64,000 bases of DNA. Origin: a virus (Duplodnaviria; Caudoviricetes). Of the stretch, positions 2,578-49,672 are shown piece after piece. The stretch lies in IMG/VR virus record IMGVR_UViG_3300002839_000006, positions 1-64,000 of that record; one strand, written 5' to 3'. The position numbers were made by a program, and so were the translations under genes. Position 1 is the first letter of the stretch; every line of letters begins with the position of its first letter. The notes beneath the pieces were generated by a model that searched no databases, was not told the origin of the DNA, and saw only the letters and a list, made by a program, of their open reading frames with translations.

Positions 2578-3576
2578 TTATTTATGCATAAATTTTCTAA
2601 TATAATCTCTTCCTTTTTGATCAATATTTGAAGAATTATCATGAAGATCTTGTAATTCATTTAAATCTTTATCTTTTCCTTTAGCTCTCATAATGATTTC
2701 TCTTTCTTTACCAGTTAGAGAATAATCATCAAAAAATGTATGATCAAATTTCTCTTCACTCTTATTCTCTGTATTCTTGGACTCTTCAACTTTATTTAAT
2801 CTATGAAAAATGCTTTCAAGTTCATTCTCTTCTTTCTTATCGCCCGTCCTTTTCTTTTCTGCTTTAATATTACCCTCTAAGTCAACAAAAAATTTATTTT
2901 TCTTATAGTTCAAAACTGAACCATCTGATCGATGTTTTGTTGACAATGGATTTCCGTATTCTTTTAATAAAGAAGCTATTGCAAGATTAACTAATTTATC
3001 ACTCTCATCTGATTTATTCTCGCCAACGCCCTTCTCCTTCTTATAATCAGCTTCAGTGTAGTAGTACTTGTATCCACCACCTGCTACTGGCTCTCTCTTA
3101 AAATATTTATGGTTGATTGACTTCTCAAACTTATCCAGTTCTTCTTCACCGAGATATTTACCGAATACATGTAGTGACTTCTCTATGTTCTCCATGTCTG
3201 GTTCGAACTCATCAAACGCTGATTTTTGAATAGAATCACCTCTTCGGATATGACCCTCTGCATTTTCTCTATGCATTTTAATACTCTCTTGTAATTGCTT
3301 TCTTTTTACAGGGTCGTGAGTATTCTCCAATTTGTCTTCTGCAGATCTATGTTCAAAACTATGTGCTTCAGCAGCATCTTTATGGTCTTCCTTACTATAA
3401 GTTTCATATGGCATATTATGAGACTTGGCATAAATAGGTTGACCACTCTTAGTTCTACCAATAATTTTACCCCCTCTACTGCCTTCTCCACCTTTTTCAA
3501 TTTCTGGCAGTGTAGCCTTGATGATATTAATTTTATCTCTTATTTGTTCTTCTCGTATCTTCTGTTGGAAGTCCAT
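2578..3576 (-). CDS. Putative internal head (cargo) protein, charged and modular
   Basis: IIKA, IEKG, IQKS, IEKS and FEKS motifs; GGEGSRGGKIIGRTKSGQPIY and KSINHKYFKRE..YKYYY modules; own promoter motif. Confidence 0.5.
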   Translation of the reverse strand: MDFQQKIREEQIRDKINIIKATLPEIEKGGEGSRGGKIIGRTKSGQPIYAKSHNMPYETYSKEDHKDAAEAHSFEHRSAEDKLENTHDPVKRKQLQESIKMHRENAEGHIRRGDSIQKSAFDEFEPDMENIEKSLHVFGKYLGEEELDKFEKSINHKYFKREPVAGGGYKYYYTEADYKKEKGVGENKSDESDKLVNLAIASLLKEYGNPLSTKHRSDGSVLNYKKNKFFVDLEGNIKAEKKRTGDKKEENELESIFHRLNKVEESKNTENKSEEKFDHTFFDDYSLTGKEREIIMRAKGKDKDLNELQDLHDNSSNIDQKGRDYIRKFMHK

Positions 3577-4444: not shown

Positions 4445-5244
4445 TATAGTGAGGATATATTTATTGACTTATAGAATAGTCTCAGTTTCTTAAGACATTC
4501 ATTGATCTCTTCTGTATACTGTTTTATACGTCCTGAGTAACCACCTGACCCAGATGACATATTTGTATTGATGGATTGTGATAAACCATCTATACCTAAC
4601 GACATTGAATTTACCCCTGGACTACCTAAAATGATATCACCCAACATGGCAAATATTGGTATAGAAGCTAACTTCCCTACTACGTTTACTAAGTCCAGTG
4701 GCACATCATCATAGTTGTAACCTGTCACATATTGTATGCTGAAGTAGTTTGGCACCTGACCATAACTAGTAAGACCTAAATAGGCAGTGATACCTGTTAA
4801 TATTATGTCAGCATTTGCCCTGCTTGTTGTAGAACCTGTAGGTATGAGGTGTATCTTCTTATAGTAGTTACCCTCGTTGTCTTTCTTTGTATTAAGCCAA
4901 TCTAAGGGGTACTTTATCTGTTCTATACCATTTAGGTAACCGATGAAAGAAAGTGGCTTAGCAACAGGCAATTTAGTGGGTAAGATAGGGAATCCACCCC
5001 AATAGTCATCCTTGAAATAGGTGACTGTCTGTTCTATGTACTTCTTGTTGAACCTGATCTCAAGGTACTTCTCAATCTCTTGCTGTGCTGCCAAGATATA
5101 CATACGCATAGAGTCGTTAGATATCTCTGAGCCATCTCTTGACTTGGTACTTATACCGTAAAAATAAAGGCTTGTTAGTTCCTCTGGTGAAATAACAAGC
5201 CCTTCATTCTTTCGATACCTAACCTGATATGTTATGGTTGGCAT
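4444..5244 (-). CDS. Head-tail adaptor (connector) protein
   Basis: YILAAQQEIEKYL, IQYVTGY..VPLDL and SMSLGIDGLSQS motifs are typical of adaptors; synteny. Confidence 0.7.
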   Translation of the reverse strand: MPTITYQVRYRKNEGLVISPEELTSLYFYGISTKSRDGSEISNDSMRMYILAAQQEIEKYLEIRFNKKYIEQTVTYFKDDYWGGFPILPTKLPVAKPLSFIGYLNGIEQIKYPLDWLNTKKDNEGNYYKKIHLIPTGSTTSRANADIILTGITAYLGLTSYGQVPNYFSIQYVTGYNYDDVPLDLVNVVGKLASIPIFAMLGDIILGSPGVNSMSLGIDGLSQSINTNMSSGSGGYSGRIKQYTEEINECLKKLRLFYKSINISSL

Positions 5245-5250
5245 GTTTTC

Positions 5251-5793
5251 TTATTCTTTAATTCTTGATTCGTCGAGTATAACGTTGATGATTTCGGCTT
5301 TGTTAGTAAGATTTTTGTATCTTTCTTCTGGAATTTCCAGTCTTATGCAGAACTCAACCAGTTCCTTCTGAGTTTTGCTGGTTAAACCAACTTTCAATTC
5401 GAGTTCTTTAATGATTTTATCACTCTGGATTTTGTAACCCTCTAACTCAGCTTCTGCCTTCTCAGATTTGTCTTTATATAAGTTTACTTGTTCTTTCCAC
5501 TCTTTCACTTCATTCTCCAATGAACTGATAACTGATTCTCTAGATTCAACTTTCTCAAGTGCTCTTTCTAAATCAGCCTGTATTTGGGTATTATTTACAT
5601 CAACTGCTTTATTACCCTTTTTCATTGTTACTTCACCCTGAAATAACCAACCTGCATAATTTGTAGTTAATTGGTCTGCAATCTTCTGGTCTGCGACTTC
5701 TGCATTACCTAACTTATCAAACTTCAATGTTAAACTTCCGAAAATAACTTCATGCCCGAAATTACTTGAAACTGCTGTGCTAATCTTAATCAT
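5251..5793 (-). CDS. Hypothetical protein with coiled coil and small C-terminal helical (HeH/Rho-N-like) domain
   Basis: Heptad-rich middle; C-terminal KTQKELVEFC..L.I...NKAEIINVIL. Confidence 0.5.
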   Translation of the reverse strand: MIKISTAVSSNFGHEVIFGSLTLKFDKLGNAEVADQKIADQLTTNYAGWLFQGEVTMKKGNKAVDVNNTQIQADLERALEKVESRESVISSLENEVKEWKEQVNLYKDKSEKAEAELEGYKIQSDKIIKELELKVGLTSKTQKELVEFCIRLEIPEERYKNLTNKAEIINVILDESRIKE

Positions 5794-5822
5794 ATAACAA
5801 AATTAAAAATGTGAATAAAAAG

Positions 5823-5852
5823 AAAAACGGAAGGAGATCTACCCCTCCCGTC
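5823..5852 (-). terminator. Intrinsic terminator after major capsid gene
   Basis: ACGGGAGGGG-TAGAT-CTCCTTCCGT followed by a T run on the minus strand. Confidence 0.8.
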
Positions 5853-5877
5853 ATTTCTTCGTTGATACGTCTATTGT

Positions 5878-7368
5878 TTAAGCAGTGATATCTCGTCCAA
5901 TATTATGGATGATGGCGATCTTACCTGGCATATATAAAACTGGAGTACCATAATTAACTACGGCAAACCTACGAGCCAAAGTAGTGATAGCAAAGTCGAT
6001 TTTCATCGTGGCAGCTAACTGGATATATTCCCACATATCTGAATTAGGATCTAAAACAAGTGCTGAATGTGTGTTACCAATTACTCGGTTACGATCACGT
6101 ACACCATACTGAGCAGCACCATCATAACCTGAAGCAGCAGCTAATTGTGTTACTGATACTTCAAACAATGGATAATACTTAGCAGTTGTATATACAGCGA
6201 CGTTCTTCTCAGTACGATAAACAGTAAAGGAAGTAGCAGCATAAGTACCAACACCTGCAACAAATACTAAGTCAACAGATTCAGTAGCTGCGATAGCCTT
6301 GATAGTAGTGTTCATTGCACACATTGCTGATTCACCATACTGATTACGAGCAGTTACTCCATAGAAGTATCCACCTGCAGCATCAGTAAATTTGGTTGAA
6401 GTATCAGCAGAAGCGATAGTCAAACTGGTGTTATTCACAGCAGTAGGAACGGCAGGAGCCTTAGCTGAAACAGCTGCAGCATTGTATGCCTTAGGAGTTC
6501 TGCGATCGAAGAAGATATCATTGACAACATCAATTTTCCCAAACTGAGTCATGATATCATTAACCTTCTGACCCATAGTAGCTCCTTCAGTAGCTGAACT
6601 AGGTGCACCAACCATTACACGTTTGCTTTCATGGAAACGTTTTACATAGTCATTGAAAACAACAGGGTTGGAGATGATTTTGGTTGCTTCACCAAAACGA
6701 TCATTAACAACTGCCTGTACTGCATCTTCTACATGAGAATCTTTCAATGCTTTACCACGAGCATCAATGAAAGTAGGGTCGTTAGCATAAGTATCCAAAC
6801 CTGTTCCAGCAGTGATGTCAAGGACACCTGCATAATGTTGTTTGAAAATACCATCAAATTCCTGAGGAACCATAGCATTGTCAGAACCTGAAAGTTTCTG
6901 ATCCAACTGGGTTAAGAGTTTCAAGGTCTTATTTTCAACCTCACGAGTGTACGGATCTTTACCGTCAGCCTGGCGAACAAGCATTGACTGTTGTGTCAGT
7001 TCACCTTGGATACCAGCATACTTTACAAGAGCAGCCTTACGTCTGTAAACAGAGTCAGTTTGTTCTGGAGATTCACCTTCATTCATGAAGATTCCTACAT
7101 CAGCACCATAACTGGTTAATTGGTTATACTCATGTACTGTATTGTAAACACTCTTTTTAGGAAGTAATTTCCAAAGTACAATATGGTTTTCTTTATTTTC
7201 CAACACCTTTACAACTGGGTCAAGTGACTCAGGTTTCAGGGAAGGTCCAGACGATAGCGTATCTGTTAGATCGCGACCTGTCTGACTACCAGCAACGATT
7301 GCTTTGATAATATCCTCATCGGAGTAATTCTCAGCATTCTTGCCTAATGAATCATGAATGTCAAACAT
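5878..7368 (-). CDS. Major capsid protein (SPO1/Twort-like)
   Basis: SLKPESLD, VHEYNQLTSYG, EGESP and YGTPVLYMPGK motifs; N-terminal IIK|A at the position of the ALK|S processing site known for Listeria phage A511 Cps; follows protease and scaffold. Confidence 0.9.
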   Translation of the reverse strand: MFDIHDSLGKNAENYSDEDIIKAIVAGSQTGRDLTDTLSSGPSLKPESLDPVVKVLENKENHIVLWKLLPKKSVYNTVHEYNQLTSYGADVGIFMNEGESPEQTDSVYRRKAALVKYAGIQGELTQQSMLVRQADGKDPYTREVENKTLKLLTQLDQKLSGSDNAMVPQEFDGIFKQHYAGVLDITAGTGLDTYANDPTFIDARGKALKDSHVEDAVQAVVNDRFGEATKIISNPVVFNDYVKRFHESKRVMVGAPSSATEGATMGQKVNDIMTQFGKIDVVNDIFFDRRTPKAYNAAAVSAKAPAVPTAVNNTSLTIASADTSTKFTDAAGGYFYGVTARNQYGESAMCAMNTTIKAIAATESVDLVFVAGVGTYAATSFTVYRTEKNVAVYTTAKYYPLFEVSVTQLAAASGYDGAAQYGVRDRNRVIGNTHSALVLDPNSDMWEYIQLAATMKIDFAITTLARRFAVVNYGTPVLYMPGKIAIIHNIGRDITA

Positions 7369-7404
7369 ATTATTATATTTAATTATCTAACGAAATACTA
7401 AAAA

Positions 7405-8262
7405 TTACTGCTCCAGAGTAATATTTTTTCTATGTGCTAAAAGAGCAAGTGCCTTGTAGCCGTGTCCAGTAGGACGTGTATTAACTGTATAGTCTAAAAT
7501 ACCGTTTTCGATTACTTGTCTAACGTCGGCATCTTTCTCTTTATTGAGCATGTCTTCCATACCCTTTAAAATTTCATCTTTGTTACCAGAAATAGAGAGT
7601 GTTTTGTTCTCAGCATTCTCTACGTCTTCTTCATTACTCAAACTCTTTTCAAAGAAAGTAGCCTTAGTAATAACTGATTTTGTTCCCATAGGAGTGTCAC
7701 CTATCTTCTTGATCTCAGACTGTAGGCTCTTTATGATCTCGTTCTGTTCATCAAACTTATCTTCGAACTTCTCAGTGAGTGACTTTTCAATGTCCATGAA
7801 ACGTTCACCAAAGGCTTTCTCAATGTCAATGTCTACTGATTTATGAATTTCTTCTTCCTTTTTCTCTTCTGGTTTCTTCTTACCCATCTTCAGTTCCATC
7901 TCATCAATTGATTTCTCAATCTCAGCTTTCTTGGACTTCATCTCAGTAAGACATTTTTCTAAGTCTTCTTCTTTATCTTCACTCTTGACTATAGGTTTTT
8001 CTTCACCTTCTTTTTTCTCTTCAGCTTGTTCTGCAGGAGTCTCTTTTGCTTCATCAGCAGAAGTTTCATTTGCTTCGCCAGTCTTTTCAGCTTTCTCTCC
8101 CATGGTTTGTTCTGAACTAGACTCTTTCTCTTCTTTCTTTTCGACCTTCATAGCCTTTTCGATATAGGAGTTGACTTCTGTTTCTTCCATGCCAAGATCA
8201 GTCAATGACTTTCTAAGTTCATCAACTTCCTCTACAGACATTATATTAATTTGATTTTCCAT
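7405..8262 (-). CDS. Capsid scaffolding protein
   Basis: Glu/Lys-rich protein between protease and MCP, with about 10 [IF]xK[SAG] motifs. Confidence 0.75.
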   Translation of the reverse strand: MENQINIMSVEEVDELRKSLTDLGMEETEVNSYIEKAMKVEKKEEKESSSEQTMGEKAEKTGEANETSADEAKETPAEQAEEKKEGEEKPIVKSEDKEEDLEKCLTEMKSKKAEIEKSIDEMELKMGKKKPEEKKEEEIHKSVDIDIEKAFGERFMDIEKSLTEKFEDKFDEQNEIIKSLQSEIKKIGDTPMGTKSVITKATFFEKSLSNEEDVENAENKTLSISGNKDEILKGMEDMLNKEKDADVRQVIENGILDYTVNTRPTGHGYKALALLAHRKNITLEQ

Positions 8263-8310
8263 TCTTGTGTCGTTTCTATGTTCAGAATACTAAACTAACT
8301 ATTAAGTTTA

Positions 8311-8326
8311 TAAAATTAAAATATAA
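8311..8326 (-). promoter_or_regulatory. Recurrent promoter-like motif upstream of scaffold/MCP
   Basis: TAATTTTA core with TATATTT extension. Confidence 0.6.
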
Positions 8327-8345
8327 TTTTGAATAAATAAAATAT

Positions 8346-9170
8346 TTACAAAGAATTTTTAACTAATTTAATGACTTTATTTTTAAAATCACTGTCTCCA
8401 TCAAATAAACTCTTATGTTTCAATATATTATCTAATGCCTTTTTAATGTCAGGTAGGCTAATATTTTTTGGTTTCTTATCTAAACTTTCAGGTGTGAGTG
8501 GTTTTACTGCAGCTACATCCATAGATTTAGTTAATACCTCAAATACTTTATAGTCTTTACCTACCCTATACTTCTTACCTTTGTTCTCAAACTCCATAAT
8601 ATATTCTTTCTCATCTGAATCCTGATCGTAGGTAGGATCTATATAATCTTCCTTCTGAAGACCTTTAGCTATATCCGCATAAGAATTTCCGTTAACCGGG
8701 GAAAATGTTATGGCACAGTTAGTTATAAGTGCCCTGGTGATATGTTTTGGATTAGTAGTAGAACGATTCAGTGCTTTTCCTTCGATGCTCCAACCGACTT
8801 TTCTATCAGATCCAGACTCTTTCATCTCAATAATCTTATCCCAAGTGTCTCTTGCTATTTCACTGTTCTCCCATAGTTGTGCTTTTATATGGAATTCATT
8901 ATTTTTAATCTCAGCTTTAACAGGAGAGCCAATCCAGTATTTTGGGCTCCTTTTAGACAAATGTTCGTAATTTATCAGTCCATTTTTCAAAAAGTGGTCA
9001 ATCTCATATCCGTTAGGTTCTAATACTTCACCTTCTATATCTTGTGAATTATCAGAAGCCATCCCTTCAAGAAACATATTTTTATATCTATCTGATTTTG
9101 GTAATTTAGATGCTTTCTCTAATAATTCATCATTAATAGGGACAAAGAAATTAAATTTATTATCTTCCAT
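8346..9170 (-). CDS. Prohead (maturation) protease, HK97/U35-like
   Basis: LEGMASDNSQDIEGE, INYEH (His), GWSIEG (Ser) and ITFSPVN motifs. Confidence 0.88.
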   Translation of the reverse strand: MEDNKFNFFVPINDELLEKASKLPKSDRYKNMFLEGMASDNSQDIEGEVLEPNGYEIDHFLKNGLINYEHLSKRSPKYWIGSPVKAEIKNNEFHIKAQLWENSEIARDTWDKIIEMKESGSDRKVGWSIEGKALNRSTTNPKHITRALITNCAITFSPVNGNSYADIAKGLQKEDYIDPTYDQDSDEKEYIMEFENKGKKYRVGKDYKVFEVLTKSMDVAAVKPLTPESLDKKPKNISLPDIKKALDNILKHKSLFDGDSDFKNKVIKLVKNSL

Positions 9171-9182
9171 TTTATTTATCTA

Positions 9183-9620
9183 TTATTCACTAACGATGTT
9201 CTTCTCTAGTTTTGTATAGTACTTACTATCTTCCATCAGATGATCTTTTGTTATCTCACTTCTCTCTTCTTCATCACTCGTATGTTCTTTCTCTTCTTCC
9301 ATACCCATCTTGTACTGCTCCTGGAGTGCACTTACCTCTATGTTGTGATGTGCAGCTATATCTTCTAATGTCTTACCATCAGCTCTGCCACCGATCAACT
9401 TTTCTTTTTGTGCTTTCTGTATCTCATATCTCTCTTTTGCTGCATTGTATATCTCATCACTGATCTGATCCATTATATAGAGGTCAGATATGTGAGAGAA
9501 GGCTTTTTCTATGTCTTTTTCTTCGACAACTTCTGTCTTTGGATCGTCACTCTTTGTACTAAATCTTTTAAAGAACCCATCCAGTTCAAGAACTTGTTTT
9601 GTGTCTATCTTAGTTTTCAT
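9183..9620 (-). CDS. DUF5661-like protein, probable internal head protein
   Basis: MGMEEEKEHT...ITKDHLMEDSKYYTKL motif; IEKA and IQKA motifs. Confidence 0.6.
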   Translation of the reverse strand: MKTKIDTKQVLELDGFFKRFSTKSDDPKTEVVEEKDIEKAFSHISDLYIMDQISDEIYNAAKERYEIQKAQKEKLIGGRADGKTLEDIAAHHNIEVSALQEQYKMGMEEEKEHTSDEEERSEITKDHLMEDSKYYTKLEKNIVSE

Positions 9621-12147
9621 TCATTTCAGATATTAAGTTCTTTATAATTTCATATGTCTTAGGGAATTCTTCTTTAAGATCTTTCAAATCTCTATTATCT
9701 TCTGTATCACCTTCATCACCCAATGCCATAACGAATGCAGCAAAGGATTCACACCAATTCTCTTCTTCATCCATTTCTGCCTGATGAGATACTCTTTCTT
9801 TCGTATACCATAGATCAACCAAATTCTCAGCGGTTATTTTATCATCTCTATAGAGCTTATGTCCATATTCATGCAATATAACTTTTGTATATTGCTCTTG
9901 ACCATACCAATCTGTTGCAATTTCATCGTATAGTTGCTTATTTATACTTATTTCATTGTAGTCTTCATTAAACGCTCCGACCCAATATCCATTAGATTCT
10001 CTTTCGTATTTACTCTGATCAACCAACTGTAGTCTTGCTTTAGACAAATGACTAACGATATTTTCAGGTAGATTATTAGACAAAGCTCCAATCACCTTTA
10101 CAGAACATTGGTGACTTAACATTTCATTAGGATAATTCCTATAGAAGTTGTTGAATACGATTTTATCCTTTTTATCATAATCAATAACATAATTCTGTTT
10201 TAAATCATCTAAGAAATCTTCTTTCCGCTCAACAGCTTGGTCATTTTGATTCTCATAGTAAGTGTACACCCACTTCCCATTCTTCATCTCCTTTTTGAGA
10301 TATTTGTGATTTAATGCTTTTACTATCTCATTTACTTTCTCAGTAGGAATGATACCGAGTTGAATGGCTTTTTTGATGTGTTCTGACACTTTAAACTTCT
10401 CATGCCAGTATCTATCATTTCTTTCTTTATATTCGTTAACATTCCAATCAATATTGAAATATTTGTTGACTACTTCTTCAATATCATCTAATGCAGTCTT
10501 ACCAAATGACTTCTTTATAAATCCTGTTATAATATTTTTAAGTTCAGAGAATATACTTTTCTTCTCAGTAGGAGTTTCACTATCTGAAGGTATTGTCTGT
10601 AAAAATTCTGCAAATTCTTTATTAGTAAATGCATATGTAATTAACTCTTCAAGATCATCTGCTTTTATCTTTCCAGATTCATCATTATAAAAATCTGGTA
10701 TTTTATGCTGTATTGAAACATCAAATATATATGAAATTATGTGTTTTACGCTGTCTGATGCAGAATCAAAATTAGCAAGTATCTTTCTTGCTATAGGAAA
10801 CAATTCACTGTGTAGATTATATGAATTTACCCCAATACCTTTGGAAATAATGCCATGGAGAGTCTCATGGTTAATAGTCTCAGTAAAACTAGACCTATCT
10901 TCATAAAGTTTTGTTATGTATGGGTCAAAATTCATTTGATTATACTGCCAACATGCAGCAGCTCCATACCTAACAGACCCCTTTTCTACATTTACATGTA
11001 CCCCAACACTTGAAGCAAGTTCATATAGATTCTTATATCTCTCAATATCTTCTTTTGGTAATACTTTTGCTACAAACTCAGATATGTTAGCTTGATTGTT
11101 ATTCTTTCTTTCTGAAAACTGATTTAACTTCTCAACTATAGTTTCTTTAAAGTCTTCTACTTTCTCTTTCTTATTCTTCTTCTCTTCATAAATATACCCC
11201 CACTTACTATCTTTGAACTCTTTTCTAATGTATTTATGATTCAGAGCTTTTTGTAATACATCTTCTCCACATATACCTAATCTTACTGCCTTCTGTATTA
11301 TCTTTACTTGTGGATCAAAATCCCAACCCATCATCTGAACGACATTGTCACGCATATTGAAAATCATGGGGTAGTTACTTAGTTCTTCCCGTGGCACCCA
11401 TAAATAGTCTCTTGTCTCAGCTTCATCCAATAATATCTCTATATTGTCAATTGATTGAATGTTCAGTACATAGTAATAAATACATGCATTCTCATCTTCA
11501 AATATACCTAGATGTTTCCAATAGATGCCATTCAACTTATCATCTTGTAGGAGCATGTCGGCGTCTATCCCTGTTTCTTCTCTCAGTTCTCTCTTAGCTG
11601 CATCTTCAAACTCTTCACCTTCGTCCACATGTCCACCTGGTATCACCCAAGCTCCTTTGTGGTTGTCTTCCCACTGACTTCTTTTTGTTAATAGGATTTC
11701 ATTCTTATTGTTGATGACTATTACATCTGAATATTTAGTCTGCCCTTTCTCTGTTTGCTGAGCAGCAGCCTTGTTATAATCTTCCAATGTTAACTTACCT
11801 GATCTGTATAGTGATTTAATGATTCTAACTGCCTTAGACCGATTATCTTTATTTAGGTGATGGATTATATCACTATTGCTCTTTAATATGTCTAACTCCT
11901 TTAGAAACGTTTTCTCTTGTAGTTTAATCTTGGCCAGTTCTCTTGTGAACTTCTTATTGTCAAAGTGAACATCTTCTTTACAATTGAATTCTTCTGATGA
12001 CAGTGCCTTACTTATATCTTGATACTGGTCAATCAGTAAGTCTTTTACAGAATCAATCTTTTTTAGTTCAAACTCAATAACTGCTATACGAGAAAGTTTC
12101 TCATCAGTTGTCTTAAAATAGTTTGATATGTTCTGTAGTAATCCCAT
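9610..12147 (-). CDS. Multidomain protein: Nudix hydrolase plus two zincin (HExxH) metallopeptidase-like domains
   Basis: Nudix box GGHVDEGEEFEDAAKRELREETGI; INHETLH..EELITYAFTN and ILHEYGH..ENWCESF; duplicated KALNHKY linker. Confidence 0.8.
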   Translation of the reverse strand: MGLLQNISNYFKTTDEKLSRIAVIEFELKKIDSVKDLLIDQYQDISKALSSEEFNCKEDVHFDNKKFTRELAKIKLQEKTFLKELDILKSNSDIIHHLNKDNRSKAVRIIKSLYRSGKLTLEDYNKAAAQQTEKGQTKYSDVIVINNKNEILLTKRSQWEDNHKGAWVIPGGHVDEGEEFEDAAKRELREETGIDADMLLQDDKLNGIYWKHLGIFEDENACIYYYVLNIQSIDNIEILLDEAETRDYLWVPREELSNYPMIFNMRDNVVQMMGWDFDPQVKIIQKAVRLGICGEDVLQKALNHKYIRKEFKDSKWGYIYEEKKNKKEKVEDFKETIVEKLNQFSERKNNNQANISEFVAKVLPKEDIERYKNLYELASSVGVHVNVEKGSVRYGAAACWQYNQMNFDPYITKLYEDRSSFTETINHETLHGIISKGIGVNSYNLHSELFPIARKILANFDSASDSVKHIISYIFDVSIQHKIPDFYNDESGKIKADDLEELITYAFTNKEFAEFLQTIPSDSETPTEKKSIFSELKNIITGFIKKSFGKTALDDIEEVVNKYFNIDWNVNEYKERNDRYWHEKFKVSEHIKKAIQLGIIPTEKVNEIVKALNHKYLKKEMKNGKWVYTYYENQNDQAVERKEDFLDDLKQNYVIDYDKKDKIVFNNFYRNYPNEMLSHQCSVKVIGALSNNLPENIVSHLSKARLQLVDQSKYERESNGYWVGAFNEDYNEISINKQLYDEIATDWYGQEQYTKVILHEYGHKLYRDDKITAENLVDLWYTKERVSHQAEMDEEENWCESFAAFVMALGDEGDTEDNRDLKDLKEEFPKTYEIIKNLISEMNEN

Positions 12148-12186: not shown

Positions 12187-12942
12187 CTATACCAAAAATT
12201 CTTTATCTTTAAACTTACAATTTTCAAAGTGAAAACGATGCATGGCATTAATTCCTCCAATCTTACCACAATGAGGACACATAACCTTTTCCCTGGGTTT
12301 TCTCATTTTAGTTAATTGTTCTTCATTAAAACCAACTATTTCATACCACAATTTTATCTTTTCTTTAGATTCGTCTTTGTGAGTTTTATCTTTCATAGGG
12401 CTTATTCTACCTTTTTGACCCTCTGAGTTCTTTCTTCTCCACTCTTCACTTTGGCCACCGTTTATTTCATAATACCTTTTATGACTATCCCTCATATTCT
12501 GCAAAGATTCTTCTGAATAAATTCCTGTTTTACCTTTATTCCAAGCTATTCTTCCTTTCCCTCCTTTTGATACATTGTCTTTATGTTCCTGAGTTAATTT
12601 CTTACCTGTTAATGCTAAAGATATTTTTCTTAACCACTCTTCTGTAAAAACAGGAATATAGCCTTTATTTCCTTGACCACCTGCAGTAATATTATAAAAA
12701 GTTTCTAAATTAACCGCATCAAATTCTTTTATGATAGCTTCTTCTCTAGAATATGCTTCCAAATGAGTATCACAATATTCTAATATCTCCCTTTTAAAAT
12801 TTTTACGACCATACTTTTTAATTGCTTTCTCTAATACTAAACCCGACCCTAAATAGCCATCATTCAAATTTTTAGTAGTATGCTTACCTATATAAGCCTT
12901 ATCATTAACAAGATTAGTAGTAATATAAACAAAATGTATCAT
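12187..12942 (-). mobile_element. Free-standing GIY-YIG homing endonuclease with NUMOD3-like repeats and C-terminal Zn finger
   Basis: FVYITTNLVNDKAYIGKH; H..E.K..IS repeats; CPHCG...HFENCK. Confidence 0.85.
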
Positions 12943-13853
12943 ACTTCAAAAGTTTTATCCCCAACCGTTATTTTTATTTTAGACGTTCTAATTACTTTTC
13001 TCTCCCTATCTAAACTATATTCAAATCTATTTGTATCTTTATTCCACTTTTGACCAGCAAAAATAGGTTGTATATCACACCTACAATAAGGGTGATTTGT
13101 TCCTAAAACCGCTTTCCAATCGTCTACTTTCCTCCCTATATTTGTTCCATTCTGAATTAATGTAGACAACTTAAAAATAATAGGTTCACTCCCTACCCCT
13201 TGAGTTAAATGTAATTTAAGACAATGGCGACAGGCTGAATCAAAAGTATGTTTCCAACACAATGCTTCATCTCCATACTTCCTTATTATTTCAGATGCCC
13301 TACCCTGTTCATATATGTTCTGCATCTCAGTCACAACTATTCTCTTCCAGTCTCTATCCCACTCACCAGTTCTATGACCTAAATCACTTACTACTGAAGC
13401 TATGCTTTTCCTGTTCTTAATGCCTTCTGAGATTGTTTCTGATATGATATTCTTCTTATTCTCCTCAAGCATTATATCTCTGGTAGCACCAACTACTTTG
13501 TTTGCAAGTCCCTTCAGATGATTATAGGTGATTTCCCTGCTTATCTTATACTCTGCTCTTTCTCTTTCTGATAGTGGTATAAATTGTCCCCTATCCAAAT
13601 ATTTCTCAAAATCTTCATTGGTTAACTCTTTTGTCTGTTTCTCTTCTAATACCGCAGTTAACCTCCCGAGCAGAAAGTTCCTCATAAATGGTGGATATTG
13701 TTCTTCTAACTTCTCAATATCTATACCATAGTTTGTCAGAAACAGTTTATCTTCATCAGATAACACTTCTGTCCCCAGTGATGTGAATATCATAAAAGAA
13801 TAGTGATGTTGGATTATATCTACTATTCTCTGTATATCTGTTGTACTGAACAT
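12939..13853 (-). CDS. MuF/SPP1-gp7-like minor head (morphogenesis) protein
   Basis: DWKRIVVTEM, ACRHCLKLH and HPYCRC motifs. Confidence 0.8.
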   Translation of the reverse strand: MFSTTDIQRIVDIIQHHYSFMIFTSLGTEVLSDEDKLFLTNYGIDIEKLEEQYPPFMRNFLLGRLTAVLEEKQTKELTNEDFEKYLDRGQFIPLSERERAEYKISREITYNHLKGLANKVVGATRDIMLEENKKNIISETISEGIKNRKSIASVVSDLGHRTGEWDRDWKRIVVTEMQNIYEQGRASEIIRKYGDEALCWKHTFDSACRHCLKLHLTQGVGSEPIIFKLSTLIQNGTNIGRKVDDWKAVLGTNHPYCRCDIQPIFAGQKWNKDTNRFEYSLDRERKVIRTSKIKITVGDKTFEV

Positions 13854-25799: not shown

Positions 25800-26597
25800 T
25801 TATTTGTTATTCACAGTATGACCTCTAACTTCTGATCTTTTAGAATCTTCATGTTGAGAAATATCTTCTGAAGTTATACCACCATATTCATTTCCATTTC
25901 TTTTAGATTTTATTCTGTATATAAAATCACCATCTTTAGTCTCAGTAACTTTTGTGACAGTACCCTTTAGATCAACCCCATTTGATTTAAATGATACTAC
26001 ATTATCAATTTCATATTCTGCCTTCTTAGCTTTCTTCTCAACAGGTTTCTCTTCTTTCTTTTTCTCACTGCTTGTTCCAGCTGTTGGACCTTCTGTAGGT
26101 TCTGTCACTTTACTTTTATCTTTATTATCCCAAGTTGACATTTTATCTTTCTCACCTTCTGGTGCCTTGAATGTGTCCTGTGCTTCCTCTGACTTCCTAC
26201 GCTGTAGTTCTTTATGTGCTGCCTCTCTTACTGCAGGATCAGTAGATACCTTAGTAGCATTCATTAGGGCTGCCTCGGATGCCGTCTTAGCAGCTGTCCC
26301 CAGATCTTGTGGTTGTGCTGTAGCTTTACCCTGTTCAGCTCTCTTATCAAGTGCTGCTTTAGCTTCTGGGTTCTCAGGTTTACCTGGTGCATCGCCACTT
26401 TTTACTGGCACCCATCCTGTAGCTTCTTTTCTCATTTTAACACCACTCCACTCCCTTATCTCACCCATCTGAGCTAATTTGCCTTTTATAATGTCCTCTT
26501 TCATTTCATTGAATGTAGGTGCAAGATTTTTCTTAATTTGATCTTCTTGTTGTTGTTGTCCTTTTCTTATTTCGTCTTGGATATTCATTTTAATCAA
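25800..26597 (-). CDS. Putative internal head (cargo) protein
   Basis: IRKG and IIKG motifs followed by KLAQMGEIREWSGVKMRKEATGW; low complexity and charged; coupled to portal. Confidence 0.5.
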   Translation of the reverse strand: MIKMNIQDEIRKGQQQQEDQIKKNLAPTFNEMKEDIIKGKLAQMGEIREWSGVKMRKEATGWVPVKSGDAPGKPENPEAKAALDKRAEQGKATAQPQDLGTAAKTASEAALMNATKVSTDPAVREAAHKELQRRKSEEAQDTFKAPEGEKDKMSTWDNKDKSKVTEPTEGPTAGTSSEKKKEEKPVEKKAKKAEYEIDNVVSFKSNGVDLKGTVTKVTETKDGDFIYRIKSKRNGNEYGGITSEDISQHEDSKRSEVRGHTVNNK

Positions 26598-28287
26598 TAT
26601 TTACGTTTTCTTCGATATATTTTAGACACTGCATAGTCAATGGATCGTCTTTACTCATCAGTGACTTCTTGAATGCCTGTGCTGGTGCACCTGATTGATC
26701 TTCCTGGTTGAACTTATCAAATGGATTTTGAGCACCTGCTTCTGGTTCACCTGTCATCTCATCTACTGCCTCGTTACTTCCCTGCCCACCCATCATCTTC
26801 ATTTGTTGTGCCTGTAGATAAACTGGATTCAATATAGTGTCAGTCTTTTCATTGAAAGGTCTTCCCATCTCAGCTTCAAATGCTGCTTCAAATGGCATCT
26901 GACCTGAAGCTATCTTCTTAGCTATAAGGTCAACCAACTCCATCTCGTCCTGTGTATCAATACCAGTAAACACCAATTCATAGTCTGAATCTATCTCTGA
27001 TACCAACCACTTGGTCAATACCTTTTCCCAGAATAGGAGTATTGGCTTCAACCCTTTCTTTTTACTATGCTGTATTCTTTCTTTCTGTCCTGCCTGACCA
27101 AATAACTGTGCTGACTTCTGGAACTGATAACCTAACTCTGAAGGATCAATAGTGAATACTGAGCATAACATAATAATAAGAAATTCCATCCATTGTTGGA
27201 ACTCCATATCCTTATTTGTTCCCTGTAAATCTATCCATTCTAAGTCTATCCCACTGAAGATCGGTAATTTATGAGAATTTCCGACACCAGCTATCATCTG
27301 TCTCCATGTCTGTCTAAAATCATTCAGAACATCCATATTGACACCACCATCCTTAATATTTATGAATCCCTTAGGGTTACTACCCTGCTTAAAGAAGTTA
27401 CCGTTGTATTGCATTCCCCACAACGACCAAGTGATAATATCCAGCAGCACCTCTACCTCAGATGTACCATATCCATTCTTATCAATAGATGTGGCTTTAT
27501 TGCGTTGAGCATACATCAGCTCCCAAGGATAGTAAACTATCTCCTGTTTGGTTACTGGGTTGACCATCACGTTGCTCTGGTATACCTGAGCGTACCGTGG
27601 ATACTGGCCAAACTGTTCTGTATACTTCTGCTTAGTCTGCTCTCTGAAACGTGGATCTATCGTCTCTAATATCCTTATAGTTGAAGCATCTATTGCTGTG
27701 TGTCCTATTAATTCAAATCTTCTGTTACGTTCACATTCAGCTGCCAACTGGTCATAGGTCATTGAATCTCTTAATGCTTTGCGGGTGAAATCTGCTAAGT
27801 CATCAGTAGTATCCCATTTACCTTTTAGTCCACCATTCTCTAAATAGTTGACTATATATTCTATTTTCTTCTTGTCTTCCCTGTTTTCTTTTTGTTTCCC
27901 AGTATCAAAAATAGATCTCTTCTTACGTATAGTATATCCCTCTGATTTATTGTCATTGGTGAAACGTAGGAAGTTCTGTACCTGGAATATTCTTGTATTT
28001 ATGATAGACCCTACAATAGGTGTATCACCTACCTTCTTCAATACATCAAATGATACTCGCTTCCGTTGTTGCTTATACCCATTAGTTGAATAGTAAGCTT
28101 CAAAAGGATCGAATACGAATGACTTGATGTCCTTCTTCTTTTTATTCTTTTCTAACTCCTGTAGATAATTTTGAGCCTTGTAGATGTCATTAACATCAGT
28201 TGACATTAACTGCTTCTCCAGAAGGAGACTTTTCTCTATCTGGAGCTTAGCAGTTTGTTCGTCTATTTGTTCTATTTCTCTATTCAT
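26590..28287 (-). CDS. Portal protein
   Basis: IDASTIR, GYGTSEVE, NFFKQGSNPKG, KDMEFQQWMEFL..DPSELG and GLKPIL motifs. Confidence 0.9.
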   Translation of the reverse strand: MNREIEQIDEQTAKLQIEKSLLLEKQLMSTDVNDIYKAQNYLQELEKNKKKKDIKSFVFDPFEAYYSTNGYKQQRKRVSFDVLKKVGDTPIVGSIINTRIFQVQNFLRFTNDNKSEGYTIRKKRSIFDTGKQKENREDKKKIEYIVNYLENGGLKGKWDTTDDLADFTRKALRDSMTYDQLAAECERNRRFELIGHTAIDASTIRILETIDPRFREQTKQKYTEQFGQYPRYAQVYQSNVMVNPVTKQEIVYYPWELMYAQRNKATSIDKNGYGTSEVEVLLDIITWSLWGMQYNGNFFKQGSNPKGFINIKDGGVNMDVLNDFRQTWRQMIAGVGNSHKLPIFSGIDLEWIDLQGTNKDMEFQQWMEFLIIMLCSVFTIDPSELGYQFQKSAQLFGQAGQKERIQHSKKKGLKPILLFWEKVLTKWLVSEIDSDYELVFTGIDTQDEMELVDLIAKKIASGQMPFEAAFEAEMGRPFNEKTDTILNPVYLQAQQMKMMGGQGSNEAVDEMTGEPEAGAQNPFDKFNQEDQSGAPAQAFKKSLMSKDDPLTMQCLKYIEENVNID

Positions 28288-28937: not shown

Positions 28938-29972
28938 TTACTCGTCTGAAATACCTTTATCAAAGCCCTCTTTCTCTAAATCTTCCCAACTTTTAAATAT
29001 AACAGGAGCACCTCTATTTGCTCTAAAATTTGCTCCGTCTTCATCCACACTTCTTACTTCATACTCTTTACCATCTTTATCAACAATAAAATCTCCAGCT
29101 TCAACATCGTCTAATTTATTGGTTGGATTTGTTTCTTTTTTATTTTCTACAGCATATAAATCATCATCGTCTCCAGAAGGAACTCTTCTCTCATCTTTTT
29201 TATCTTCTTTCTTAGTCCCAAACTTCTGCCCTACTCTCCCCAACTTCATATTCTCAGGAGTGTTCATGTAGGTTCCGCCTCTTGACTTCTGGATCTCTCC
29301 CTCCTTTGGTTCATCCCAAAGTATCTGAGCAGCCCTTACAAACATAAAGTCTTCTTGTAGATGACCCCCTGCATTAGCTGAGATAACTTTAATAGGTGAG
29401 AAAGATTTGATTTCATCAGCTACTGCCTTCATGATCTTATCTTTGTTCATAGCTTTATTATTATAGCCATGTTTTGCGTTAAAATTCTTCACATTAGCGC
29501 TATGCTCTTCAGATAATGCATCAAGCTCTTTTCTAAGAAGAACTTTCTTAGATTCTTCTGGTTCTGCTTTGATCTTATCTAAAACAACTCTTCTTTTTGC
29601 TTCGTGTTCTGTATTCAGCTTCTCGCCTTCACTAGCGTACTTGTCTCTATCACTTACTGCATCAAGTTCATCTTTATCTTTAGTCTTATTAGCTTTTACT
29701 TCAACCCAATCTTTATGGGAATTTCCTGTCTCAGACACTTTTCGCCAGATCACTCCCGAAGGCGAAGTGTGAATAGTTCCAATAGGGGATTTCTTGCCCT
29801 TTTCGATATCATTATCCAAACTCTTTGTGATCTCGTTCATGTTCTCCTCAGCAAATAGCTTTACTTGTTCGTAGGTGAATGCTTCTACCTCATTGAGTTT
29901 GATCTTTCTGTCAAGATCGTCTTTATGGATTGTTTCCATTAAATTGTCTGTTATTGAATTAACAAAATACAT
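28938..29972 (-). CDS. Putative internal head (cargo) protein, modular
   Basis: ITKS, IEKG, IMKA and IQKS motifs; GKKSPIGTI..W and SRGGTYMNTPENMKLGRVGQ modules. Confidence 0.5.
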   Translation of the reverse strand: MYFVNSITDNLMETIHKDDLDRKIKLNEVEAFTYEQVKLFAEENMNEITKSLDNDIEKGKKSPIGTIHTSPSGVIWRKVSETGNSHKDWVEVKANKTKDKDELDAVSDRDKYASEGEKLNTEHEAKRRVVLDKIKAEPEESKKVLLRKELDALSEEHSANVKNFNAKHGYNNKAMNKDKIMKAVADEIKSFSPIKVISANAGGHLQEDFMFVRAAQILWDEPKEGEIQKSRGGTYMNTPENMKLGRVGQKFGTKKEDKKDERRVPSGDDDDLYAVENKKETNPTNKLDDVEAGDFIVDKDGKEYEVRSVDEDGANFRANRGAPVIFKSWEDLEKEGFDKGISDE

Positions 29973-48706: not shown

Positions 48707-49672
48707 TTACGCGAGTATTTTATTTTGTTTCTCGATAAGTCTTATCATTACAGCATCTTTTAATTTTTTATTTCTATAAAGAGCATTTGATTCTGCCCAA
48801 AATTCGTTATATTCTGTCATGGCATAGTCGGTATATAATTTTTTAAGTGACACGTCAACCATTACTTCAGAATATCTTTTTGCTATTTCCTTGTTAATTT
48901 TACTTTTTATTATTCTTGAATCAGCCTGTACTGCGTGTGTCCATTCATGCTCAATGACGTATTTTATTCTTTCTTCGTATGTCTCTGCATATTGAGAAGA
49001 TGAAAAATATTCAGGTGATTCTCTTAACGCTTTCTGATATTCATGGAGTCTGTTTTTTAATTTCGGAATATCGCTATCCCATCCTAAATCTTTGTACTCC
49101 TTTATTTCTTTTTCAATATCAGATATATTTCTATTTATCCTAACATAGTTTGATGTGTTTTTATCAAACCCATTTTTGATTTCTTTTGTGTTTATACTCA
49201 ACTCGGCATCATCCCTTATTGCTAAAACGCCACCTTCAGTCCATGTCTTATTTAAGTACTCAAACTTTTTAAGCGTTATTCCTGTTTCTTTTTTTAACAC
49301 AATTAGCTCTTTATTTATAGTATTAATGTCATGTAACGTGAACCCATCAGCGTTTACAGATTTTGATATTGAATTATTCAAAATGAAATCTTCTGCTTTT
49401 ATCATGTTACCCGAAGGAACAAATTCAACTGTATTAATCTTCAATTCTGCCTTTGGATATTCTTTCTTCTCCTCAACTTTTGGCTTGTCTTCTTTTATCA
49501 CCTGCCAGTCATTATTTGAGTCACCAGTGTCTGATATCTTCTTGTACTGTTTGTCTCCATAAGTTCTGATAGTTCCAATAGGTAGCTTTCTTCCCTTCTC
49601 TATGTAGGAGTTGTCCACTCTTTCTCTTTGTGATGTGAATTCGTCCTGTATGTCCTTATGAATGTCAGTCAT
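48707..49672 (-). CDS. Zincin metallopeptidase-like protein with N-terminal head-cargo module
   Basis: IEKG-RKLPIGTIRTYG..W module; IEHEWTH...YAMTEYNEFWAES. Confidence 0.7.
   Translation of the reverse strand: MTDIHKDIQDEFTSQRERVDNSYIEKGRKLPIGTIRTYGDKQYKKISDTGDSNNDWQVIKEDKPKVEEKKEYPKAELKINTVEFVPSGNMIKAEDFILNNSISKSVNADGFTLHDINTINKELIVLKKETGITLKKFEYLNKTWTEGGVLAIRDDAELSINTKEIKNGFDKNTSNYVRINRNISDIEKEIKEYKDLGWDSDIPKLKNRLHEYQKALRESPEYFSSSQYAETYEERIKYVIEHEWTHAVQADSRIIKSKINKEIAKRYSEVMVDVSLKKLYTDYAMTEYNEFWAESNALYRNKKLKDAVMIRLIEKQNKILA

Follow-up and report, generated by a model that had tools for sequence, protein, structure and literature searches.

A stretch of 64,000 nucleotides from the IMG/VR virus record IMGVR_UViG_3300002839_000006 (referred to below as the window) originates from an uncultured phage of Bacteroidota and contains, among its head-building genes, a gene for an 845-amino-acid protein (P0001) that we call the cargo protein. 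Our analysis identifies this product as a phage polyvalent protein that combines a Nudix hydrolase domain, two zincin-like modules (A and B) and a repeated conserved joint. A protein identical to it is also encoded on a 114-kb contig. We consider it slightly more likely than not that the cargo protein is packaged into the head, cut there by the head protease and injected into the host as a set of separate enzymes. It shares two features with protease-processed internal proteins, a location among head genes and a sequence motif common to capsid and scaffold.

The protein was dissected by an exhaustive phmmer search, which retrieved 168 proteins. Residues 1-300 (trunk and Nudix domain) occur in this set as stand-alone proteins of about 300 amino acids (P0032, P0080) and also at the N-terminus of proteins of 500-1400 amino acids, module A (residues ~327-591) is found in proteins of up to 3900 amino acids, and module B (residues ~636-845) is found as stand-alone proteins of 200-370 amino acids. 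The order Nudix>A>B is unique to the cargo protein among the 168; other orders include Nudix>B (P0003) and A>Nudix>DUF5661 (P0029). An earlier note on this DNA, made by reading the letters alone, had described in one open reading frame (ORF) a Nudix box, two HExxH regions with downstream motifs EELITYAF and ENWCESF, and two related linkers of about 40 amino acids with two Lys-Ala motifs each. All of these elements are present: the box at residues 172-194, HETLH at 427, HEYGH at 759, EELITYAF at 500-507, the longer form EENWCESFAAF at 795-805, and the linkers at residues 284-322 (positions 11182-11298) with IQKA and LQKA and at residues 591-632 (10252-10377) with IKKA and IVKA.

Polyvalent proteins of phages and conjugative elements, including those with metallopeptidase (MPTase) domains, were described by Iyer, Burroughs, Anand, de Souza and Aravind in 2017 (PMC5512222). 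Like them, the cargo protein unites at least two distinct enzyme domains in one phage polypeptide, and its domains are shuffled with those of other polyvalent proteins. The kinship with this class suggested in the earlier note is borne out by relatives of the trunk or of module A, which carry Kinase-PolyVal, ART-PolyVal, ART (ADP-ribosyltransferase), ParB and Zeta domains. As for the trunk itself, it has no Pfam match; its Atlas model yielded coiled-coil hairpin look-alikes at a template-modelling (TM) score of ~0.5, weak and generic, and judging by this model it is probably a coiled-coil hairpin. An I-S-K-A site at residues 45-48 (12004-12015) of the trunk is moderately conserved, with K47 found in 47/85 and S/A48 in 39/85 sequences in the alignment of relatives.

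Sequence comparison establishes the joint as a real, portable unit placed at module boundaries. Its layout consists of hydrophobic-x-K-(A/S), a helical turn ending in a G-I-I-P-like sequence, a second hydrophobic-x-K-(A/S), 3-4 residues and a beta-hairpin; the hairpin (the HKY tag) is basic and aromatic, HKYIRKE..G.W.Y.Y in outline, with the consensus in relatives HKYIRKEPDGKGGWNYIYEE. Joints 1 and 2 are 50% identical over 40 amino acids by BLASTP (pairwise E 5e-10), and phmmer searches against the ORFs of the window gave domain E-values of 5.5e-10 and 8e-08. The DNA of the two copies is only ~60% identical and shows synonymous changes within conserved codons, which indicates an old repeat held by protein-level selection; a recent tandem duplication of the linker was ruled out on the same grounds. 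AlphaFold2 (AF2) models joint 1 as helix-helix-hairpin (predicted local distance difference test, pLDDT, 42-58) and joint 2 as a helix followed by a hairpin (model strands 21-27 and 30-36, pLDDT 53-64). No Pfam family matched the joint, and an Atlas structure search with it gave nothing usable.

The HKY tag is present in 36 of the 168 retrieved proteins, always between or ahead of modules, and a manual reading of the list showed (hydrophobic)-x-K-(A/S) 3-4 residues upstream of ~34 of its 40 copies. The first site of joint 1 is the best-kept feature outside the Nudix core: among 85 cluster representatives of trunk relatives, I284 is kept in 84, K286 in 81 and A/S287 in 79, and very few of these 85 carry module A or B. 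The exact 14-residue pattern of the tag matched three times in IMG/VR, all three times in the same head module, a search that is not a census of the tag; likewise, a word-indexed protein search with the tag alone scored 4 candidates and is no gauge of its spread. In the relative L014 the prohead protease itself (9178-10269, plus strand) is extended at the C-terminus by a complete joint, with two Lys-Ala sites and the HKY hairpin, plus ~70 further residues, and at that place the protease of the window has a D-I-K-K-A remnant only. The third HKY tag of the window follows F-E-K-S in the ORF 2578-3576 (minus strand, 332 amino acids), a virion-region protein with no family match, which also bears another short motif, rich in Gly and Arg, behind an I-E-K-G close to its N-terminus; in L009 and L010, homologues of this protein are encoded downstream of the capsid gene. 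Two proteins encoded outside the head block (48707-49672 and 28938-29972, both minus) begin with a leader followed by I-E-K-G and then by a common motif of the type K..PIGTI.T...W.

Evidence bearing on the use of the Lys sites comes from five head-region proteins, namely the scaffold, the protease, the DUF5661 protein, the cargo protein and the product of ORF 2578, in which motif counts were compared with those expected from composition-preserving shuffles. The pattern hydrophobic-x-K-[ASG] was observed 34 times in this set vs 9.3 expected (z 7.9). The strict form of the motif occurs 17 times vs 2.2 expected in the five proteins, as compared with 26 vs 18.8 in the rest of the 81.7-kb genome, and the scaffold alone contains 5 strict motifs vs 0.47 expected. 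When each of the 20 residues was tried at the Lys position, only Lys turned out to be enriched (the next being Arg, z 1.8), and on this ground we rejected the idea that the enrichment arose from the pattern chosen. The scaffold and protease of the phage MA9V-3 are likewise rich in the motif. In the major capsid protein (MCP), the I-I-K-A site and the sequence following it are kept in 9 close relatives as well as in MA9V-3 and SJC03, and the preceding leader varies. Even in the MCPs of MA9V-3 and SJC03 (33% identical), K-A followed by x-x-A-G-x-x-T-G is kept, with the Lys ending an L-Q-K in both, and the leader differs in both length and sequence. A conserved site after a variable leader looks like a propeptide boundary. 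In phage HK97, gp5 is cut between Lys103 and Ser104. A literature search for a Lys-specific head protease found nothing relevant.

The scheme that we favour can be outlined as follows. The cargo protein would be synthesized late, at the time of the head proteins, enter the procapsid and reach the host along with the DNA. The helical trunk and the Nudix domain would be its constant part, to which the payloads A and B would be attached as cassettes, the same joint standing at the front of each. Most likely, the prohead protease would cut after the joint Lys, and this protease would also use the Lys site for trimming itself, the scaffold and the N-terminus of the MCP. A single gene would thereby give rise to three products, one with the Nudix domain and two with a peptidase, and the hairpin would remain on each payload as its new N-terminus. 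The analysis shows the domain content, the folds (as models), the conserved joint and gene slot, the enrichment of the motif and the variation of the payload; packaging, cleavage, injection, any enzyme substrate and any action against host defences are inferred, the cleavage and the packaging with good reason.

An alternative source of the cutting activity would be the zincin modules themselves, which might process the polyprotein during assembly or after injection with no involvement of the head protease. Such a role would agree with the MPTase-driven processing proposed by Iyer et al. with reference to DdrB of phage P1 (PMC5512222) and with the presence of catalytic-type residues in both A and B. 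On the other hand, the joint with its Lys site is found in 79-84 of the 85 trunk relatives, whereas only a few trunk-bearing proteins (P0003, P0029) carry A or B, and the motif abounds in the scaffold and protease of MA9V-3. The conservation of the site in trunk proteins devoid of any zincin points to a shared enzyme and favours the head protease over self-processing, which we regard as quite improbable.

Several observations weigh against processing by the head protease or against other parts of the proposed scheme. Copies of the motif occur inside folded parts of the cargo protein (residues 387, 434, 544 and 701), and the motif sits in predicted helices and may in part stem from a tendency of Lys/Glu-rich head proteins to form amphipathic helices. 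The strong conservation of I-x-K-A behind the Nudix domain may have a structural cause, e.g. a capping helix. The hairpins are modelled at low confidence (pLDDT 42-64 over both joints), the matches of module A in the PDB (Z ~6) fall in the range that the alignment tool terms 'common', and the prohead protease has no match in Pfam, NCBIfam or PDB sequences that would place it in a family of known specificity. Some of these points would fit a protein that is packaged and injected at full length, with the joints acting as flexible tethers, the hairpins binding DNA, the capsid interior or the portal, and the motif being a feature of helices. Polyvalent proteins are portrayed in PMC5512222 as polypeptides of several domains that may function as a unit, and the basic and aromatic hairpin is modelled as a free-standing element. 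However, the same motif marks the leader boundary of the MCP in distant relatives, it is concentrated in the scaffold and the protease, which are classical head-protease substrates, and Lys alone is enriched at its key position. Overall, we judge an uncut protein to be unlikely, and the chances for and against cleavage at the joints, as predicted from sequence, to be about evenly balanced.

The box of the Nudix domain is complete and matches the pattern GX5EX7REUXEEXGU exactly, and the Pfam model NUDIX (PF00293) covers residues 141-260 with E 5e-23 and 82 bits vs a cut-off of 21.1. The closest solved structures are those of NudI, Ndx1 and plant NUDT1 (E 6e-9 or weaker). None of the NCBIfam equivalogs, including MutT, RppH, NudI, NudE and NAD diphosphatase, reaches its cut-off among the 25 listed of 27 matched families, the best score (43.6 bits vs a cut-off of 97.9) being that of MutT. 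These profile matches mark it as a generic MutT-like domain, for which no substrate can be named because it scores under every equivalog cut-off. One of the PHROGs that it matches (phrog_15528) carries the annotation 'portal protein', in agreement with the survey of Iyer et al. 2022 (PMC9503650), in which phage Nudix genes, mostly of myoviruses, were found in late clusters or fused to MuF, portal or capsid-processing peptidase and were predicted to be packaged and injected. The tie of Nudix to late or head genes is common to that survey and to the case described here, and packaging is a prediction only in both. The difference is that here the Nudix domain follows a conserved trunk of 135 amino acids, together with which it forms the constant head of a polymorphic polyprotein.

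Of the two HExxH modules, module B has the clearer fold. Its AF2 model (mean pLDDT 87, predicted TM score 0.80) shows strands at 110-141, a helix at 152-172 with H164, E165 and H168 and a helix at 199-214 with the invariant E201 (module numbering), that is, a three-stranded sheet followed by the HExxH helix and then by a helix bearing an invariant Glu. This order of elements corresponds to the zincin plan as given in PMC5512222. The top matches of a Foldseek search against the PDB were the catalytic domain of anthrax lethal factor and the Pro-Pro endopeptidases (PPEP), with E 1.3e-5 and probability 1.0. By VIA-align, module B superposes on residues 554-776 of lethal factor with Z 12.2 and a root-mean-square deviation (rmsd) of 4.1 A over 175 residues, and on PPEP-1/3 with Z ~10 and an rmsd of 3.3 A over ~160 of 195 residues. 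H164, E165, H168, W185, E189, R190, E201 and N202 are invariant in 11 relatives. Thus, with an HExxH helix after a three-stranded sheet, a Glu on the next helix and a matching fold, the modelled module B is a zincin.

At the sequence level, module B scored below thresholds against Pfam (SprT-like, 14 bits vs a cut-off of 25.6; M48, 12 bits), its profile produced chance hits only against PDB sequences, and an IMG/VR profile search with the module B alignment found no relative. With lethal factor and PPEP-1/2/3 (peptidase family M34) it shares the superposition over most of the domain, the HExxH motif and a downstream helix of the E..(F/W).E.FA type. In contrast, sequence identity is only 10-16% with no sequence-level match in the PDB, and the substrate-binding and toxin-delivery domains are not present here. 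The modelled resemblance is one of fold and active site only and implies no particular target. Stand-alone B proteins start with a short leader, followed by a Lys-Ala/Gly site and then by an HKY, GEIR.W.G, RG.RGG.YY or KLGRVGQKYG motif. The ORF 48707-49672 mentioned above ends in a zincin-like HEWTH...NEFWAE motif; phmmer detected no significant similarity between it and module B, and only the short NEFWAE-type motif is alike.

For module A, the AF2 model is good in the core (pLDDT ~85) and poor in the flanks, and the motifs and the order of secondary structure elements fit the zincin plan. NHExxH and EE(L/I)(I/V)T(Y/F)AFTN are present in 18/18 aligned relatives covering them, and catalytic-type residues are kept across the relatives of A as well as of B. 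The Foldseek match to the PDB is weak (E 0.046). VIA gave Z 6.3/6.2 to the N-domain of Certhrax and lethal factor and Z 4.7-4.8 to PPEP-2/3 and SPRTN, and the weak PDB matches as a whole are mostly metallopeptidases or lethal-factor-like domains. Matches in BFVD (E 2e-5 to 1e-3) include proteins of crAss-like phage, ART-PolyVal, N4-type virion RNA polymerase proteins and Cellulophaga phage 'structural proteins', some of the matches lying in proteins named for large polyvalent protein-associated domains. In an hhalign comparison of A with B, the HExxH helices and preceding strands were aligned (E 9e-4, probability 23%). Relatives of module A also bear ART-PolyVal and GNAT domains. No relevant Pfam match was obtained at E up to 10, MPTase-PolyVal, SprT-like and Peptidase_M48 included. 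The claim that both HExxH regions fold as zincins has therefore fared unevenly: it stands for B (Z 12.2), and for A the models support, with moderate confidence, a zincin-like fold (Z ~6; BFVD E 2e-5).

The genomic setting of the cargo gene (Table 1) is that of a head module. On the minus strand the genes follow each other in the order MuF-like gene, GIY-YIG endonuclease, cargo, DUF5661, prohead protease, acidic scaffold and MCP.

Table 1. Parts of the cargo gene and the neighbouring head-region genes of the window.
Feature	Positions	Strand	Details
Cargo gene (P0001)	9610..12147	minus	open reading frame of 845 amino acids, stop codon included
N-terminal trunk, residues 1-135	11743..12147	minus	helical, kept throughout the family along with the Nudix domain
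Nudix hydrolase domain, residues 136-275	11323..11742	minus	Nudix box at 11566-11634
Joint 1, residues 276-335	11143..11322	minus	I-Q-K-A (11287-11298), short helical turn, L-Q-K-A (11245-11256), HKY beta-hairpin tag (11182-11238)
Module A, zincin-like, residues 336-589	10381..11142	minus	HETLH at 10855-10869, EELITYAF at 10627-10650
Joint 2, residues 590-640	10228..10380	minus	I-K-K-A (10366-10377), helical turn, I-V-K-A (10315-10326), HKY beta-hairpin tag (10252-10308)
Module B, zincin by its model, lethal factor / PPEP-1 (M34-like) type, residues 641-845	9613..10227	minus	HEYGH at 9859-9873, EENWCESFAAF at 9733-9765
MuF / SPP1 gp7-like minor head protein	12939..13853	minus	weak match to Pfam PF04233 (E 0.005), phrog_115 E 7.5e-6, TIGR01641 E 3.5e-4
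GIY-YIG/NUMOD3 homing endonuclease	12187-12942	minus	4-nt overlap with the end of the MuF-like gene
DUF5661 protein, 145 amino acids	9183..9620	minus	Pfam PF18905 E 1.5e-11; IEK-A and IQK-A sites
Prohead (head maturation) protease	8346..9170	minus	phrog_1028 E 7e-38; candidate joint-cutting enzyme
Scaffold-like acidic protein	7405..8262	minus	rich in the Lys-Ala/Ser motif
Major capsid protein (MCP)	5878..7368	minus	phrog_752 E 1e-62; I-I-K-A at residues 20-23 (7300-7311)

The same succession of MuF, trunk/Nudix gene, protease, scaffold and MCP is found in twelve IMG/VR relatives, among them L005-L009 and L012-L014, and also in the cultured Chryseobacterium phage MA9V-3 and Bacteroides phage SJC03. 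The MuF gene abuts the trunk gene in L005, L006 and L007 (in L012-L014 it lies upstream with a gap), from which we conclude that the homing endonuclease gene of the window is an insertion. A copy of this endonuclease with 27% identity is found elsewhere in the genome of L007. The stop of the cargo gene and the start of the DUF5661 gene overlap by 11 nt (9610-9620) in different frames, and in many relatives (P0009, P0012, P0013, P0030) the trunk protein and DUF5661 form an in-frame fusion. From these sequences it looks as though the separate DUF5661 gene is a split of one cargo chain, or else the form seen in relatives is a fusion. The portal gene (26590-28287, minus; Pfam Phage_portal, E 1e-20) is found at a distance of ~13 kb from the MuF/protease/capsid block, with lysis and tail-fibre-like genes in between; in SJC03 the portal gene is located just upstream of MuF.

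Location alone is no proof of packaging, and a homing endonuclease and a lysozyme are encoded in the same block. One might thus consider the cargo protein to be a late cytoplasmic multi-enzyme for nucleotide house-cleaning and proteolysis, not a virion protein, whose gene merely happens to be placed among head genes. Against this, the cargo slot between MuF and the protease has been retained among phages with MCPs only 33-57% identical, relatives of the Nudix domain match the portal-annotated phrog_15528, structural relatives of module A are found in virion-encapsulated RNA polymerase proteins and in Cellulophaga phage proteins named 'structural protein', and the joint occurs also on the prohead protease itself, in L014. 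We consider a purely cytoplasmic role to be very improbable, the least probable of the readings weighed here.

Conservation along the slot is uneven. In the closest relatives, identity amounts to 64-67% for MuF, 43-47% for the trunk, ~60% for Nudix, ~50% for the joint, 59-72% for the protease and 77-83% for the MCP. The similarity of the cargo gene between these relatives ends at the conserved joint, so that each phage may have a different payload behind the trunk: L005 and L006 run on into a protein of 1400 amino acids, the protein of L007 stops after the Nudix domain, and in L008 and L009 it is DUF5661 and other modules that follow. Among the relatives with this layout the payload is a kinase, DUF5661 or nothing. 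The payloads on 52 trunk relatives include Kinase-PolyVal, ADP-ribosyltransferases, DUF5661, DUF6496, DUF3626, a ParB-like nuclease, topoisomerase I and Zeta toxin. The end of similarity at the joint and the variety of payloads together indicate that the locus is a polymorphic cargo slot with a constant head. In MA9V-3 (L001), the cargo slot is filled by a protein of 1459 amino acids (4603-8982, plus) that matches no Pfam family and lacks HKY and HExxH motifs. Directly downstream of it is encoded a Nudix protein of 235 amino acids, which ends in a G-I-E-K-S site followed by a short Trp-containing motif.

Internal proteins and Alt of phage T4 carry a capsid targeting sequence and are cleaved by gp21 at L/I-x-E, and the ejection proteins of phiKZ and SPN3US are cut by gp175/gp245. 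The predicted behaviour of the cargo protein is similar in that enzymes would enter the prohead and be trimmed there by the head protease at a short motif present in capsid and scaffold as well. It differs from these systems in the candidate P1 residue, which is Lys here and not Glu, in the serial joining of several enzymes, and in the fate of the conserved tag, which would stay on the released module and not be removed. A further parallel is provided by the MuF-anchored polymorphic toxins of temperate phages, in which a constant head-associated N-terminus is followed by variable C-terminal effectors, the genes lying beside portal and MuF. A constant head-associated N-terminal part with variable C-terminal cassettes is common to both, whereas here the constant part (trunk and Nudix) is a separate gene downstream of MuF, and the payloads come in series with a repeated joint.

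Among the polyvalent proteins of PMC5512222, we recognize the combination of unrelated enzyme domains in one chain, the zincin-like domains present in more than one copy and interspersed, and the late or virion gene setting. On the other hand, no Pfam model, not even those of the PolyVal domains, matches module A or B, and Nudix is mentioned in that paper once, in passing. A keyword look-up in the text of this paper found neither a two-site joint with an HKY hairpin nor a constant trunk and Nudix with a swappable payload. Polyvalent proteins, head-packaged Nudix (as a prediction) and protease-trimmed internal proteins are already published; PMC5694885, PMC7411985 and PMC10052503 deal with phage internal and ejection proteins and with the head proteases of phiKZ/SPN3US. 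Distinct in the present case, as far as comparison of sequences can tell, are the Lys-type candidate site, the tag that would be retained on the product, the serial enzymes and the constant trunk and Nudix with a swappable payload.

A broader and more speculative proposal, which we regard as possible though rather doubtful, is that the joint serves a wide lineage of Bacteroidota phages as a portable 'cassette leader', being at once a cut mark for the protease, an address for capsid retention or ejection and a junction for payload swapping. In such a role it appears interchangeable with the GEIR.W.G, RG.RGG.YY and KLGRVGQKYG leaders found on the same modules in relatives. If true, phages would have in it an equivalent of polymorphic toxin systems, one that works on injected enzymes.

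The two unannotated zincin families and the trunk-linked Nudix family are candidate early-acting enzymes directed against the host or its defences. Should the joints indeed be cleaved and the fragments be injected, the loading of arbitrary enzymes into the capsid would follow a simple grammar in this phage lineage, composed of the constant trunk, the Lys cut site and the short tag. It would allow cargo proteins of uncultured phages to be recognized from sequence alone, would account for the fast exchange of payloads between close relatives, and would provide a means of loading foreign proteins into phage heads in the laboratory.

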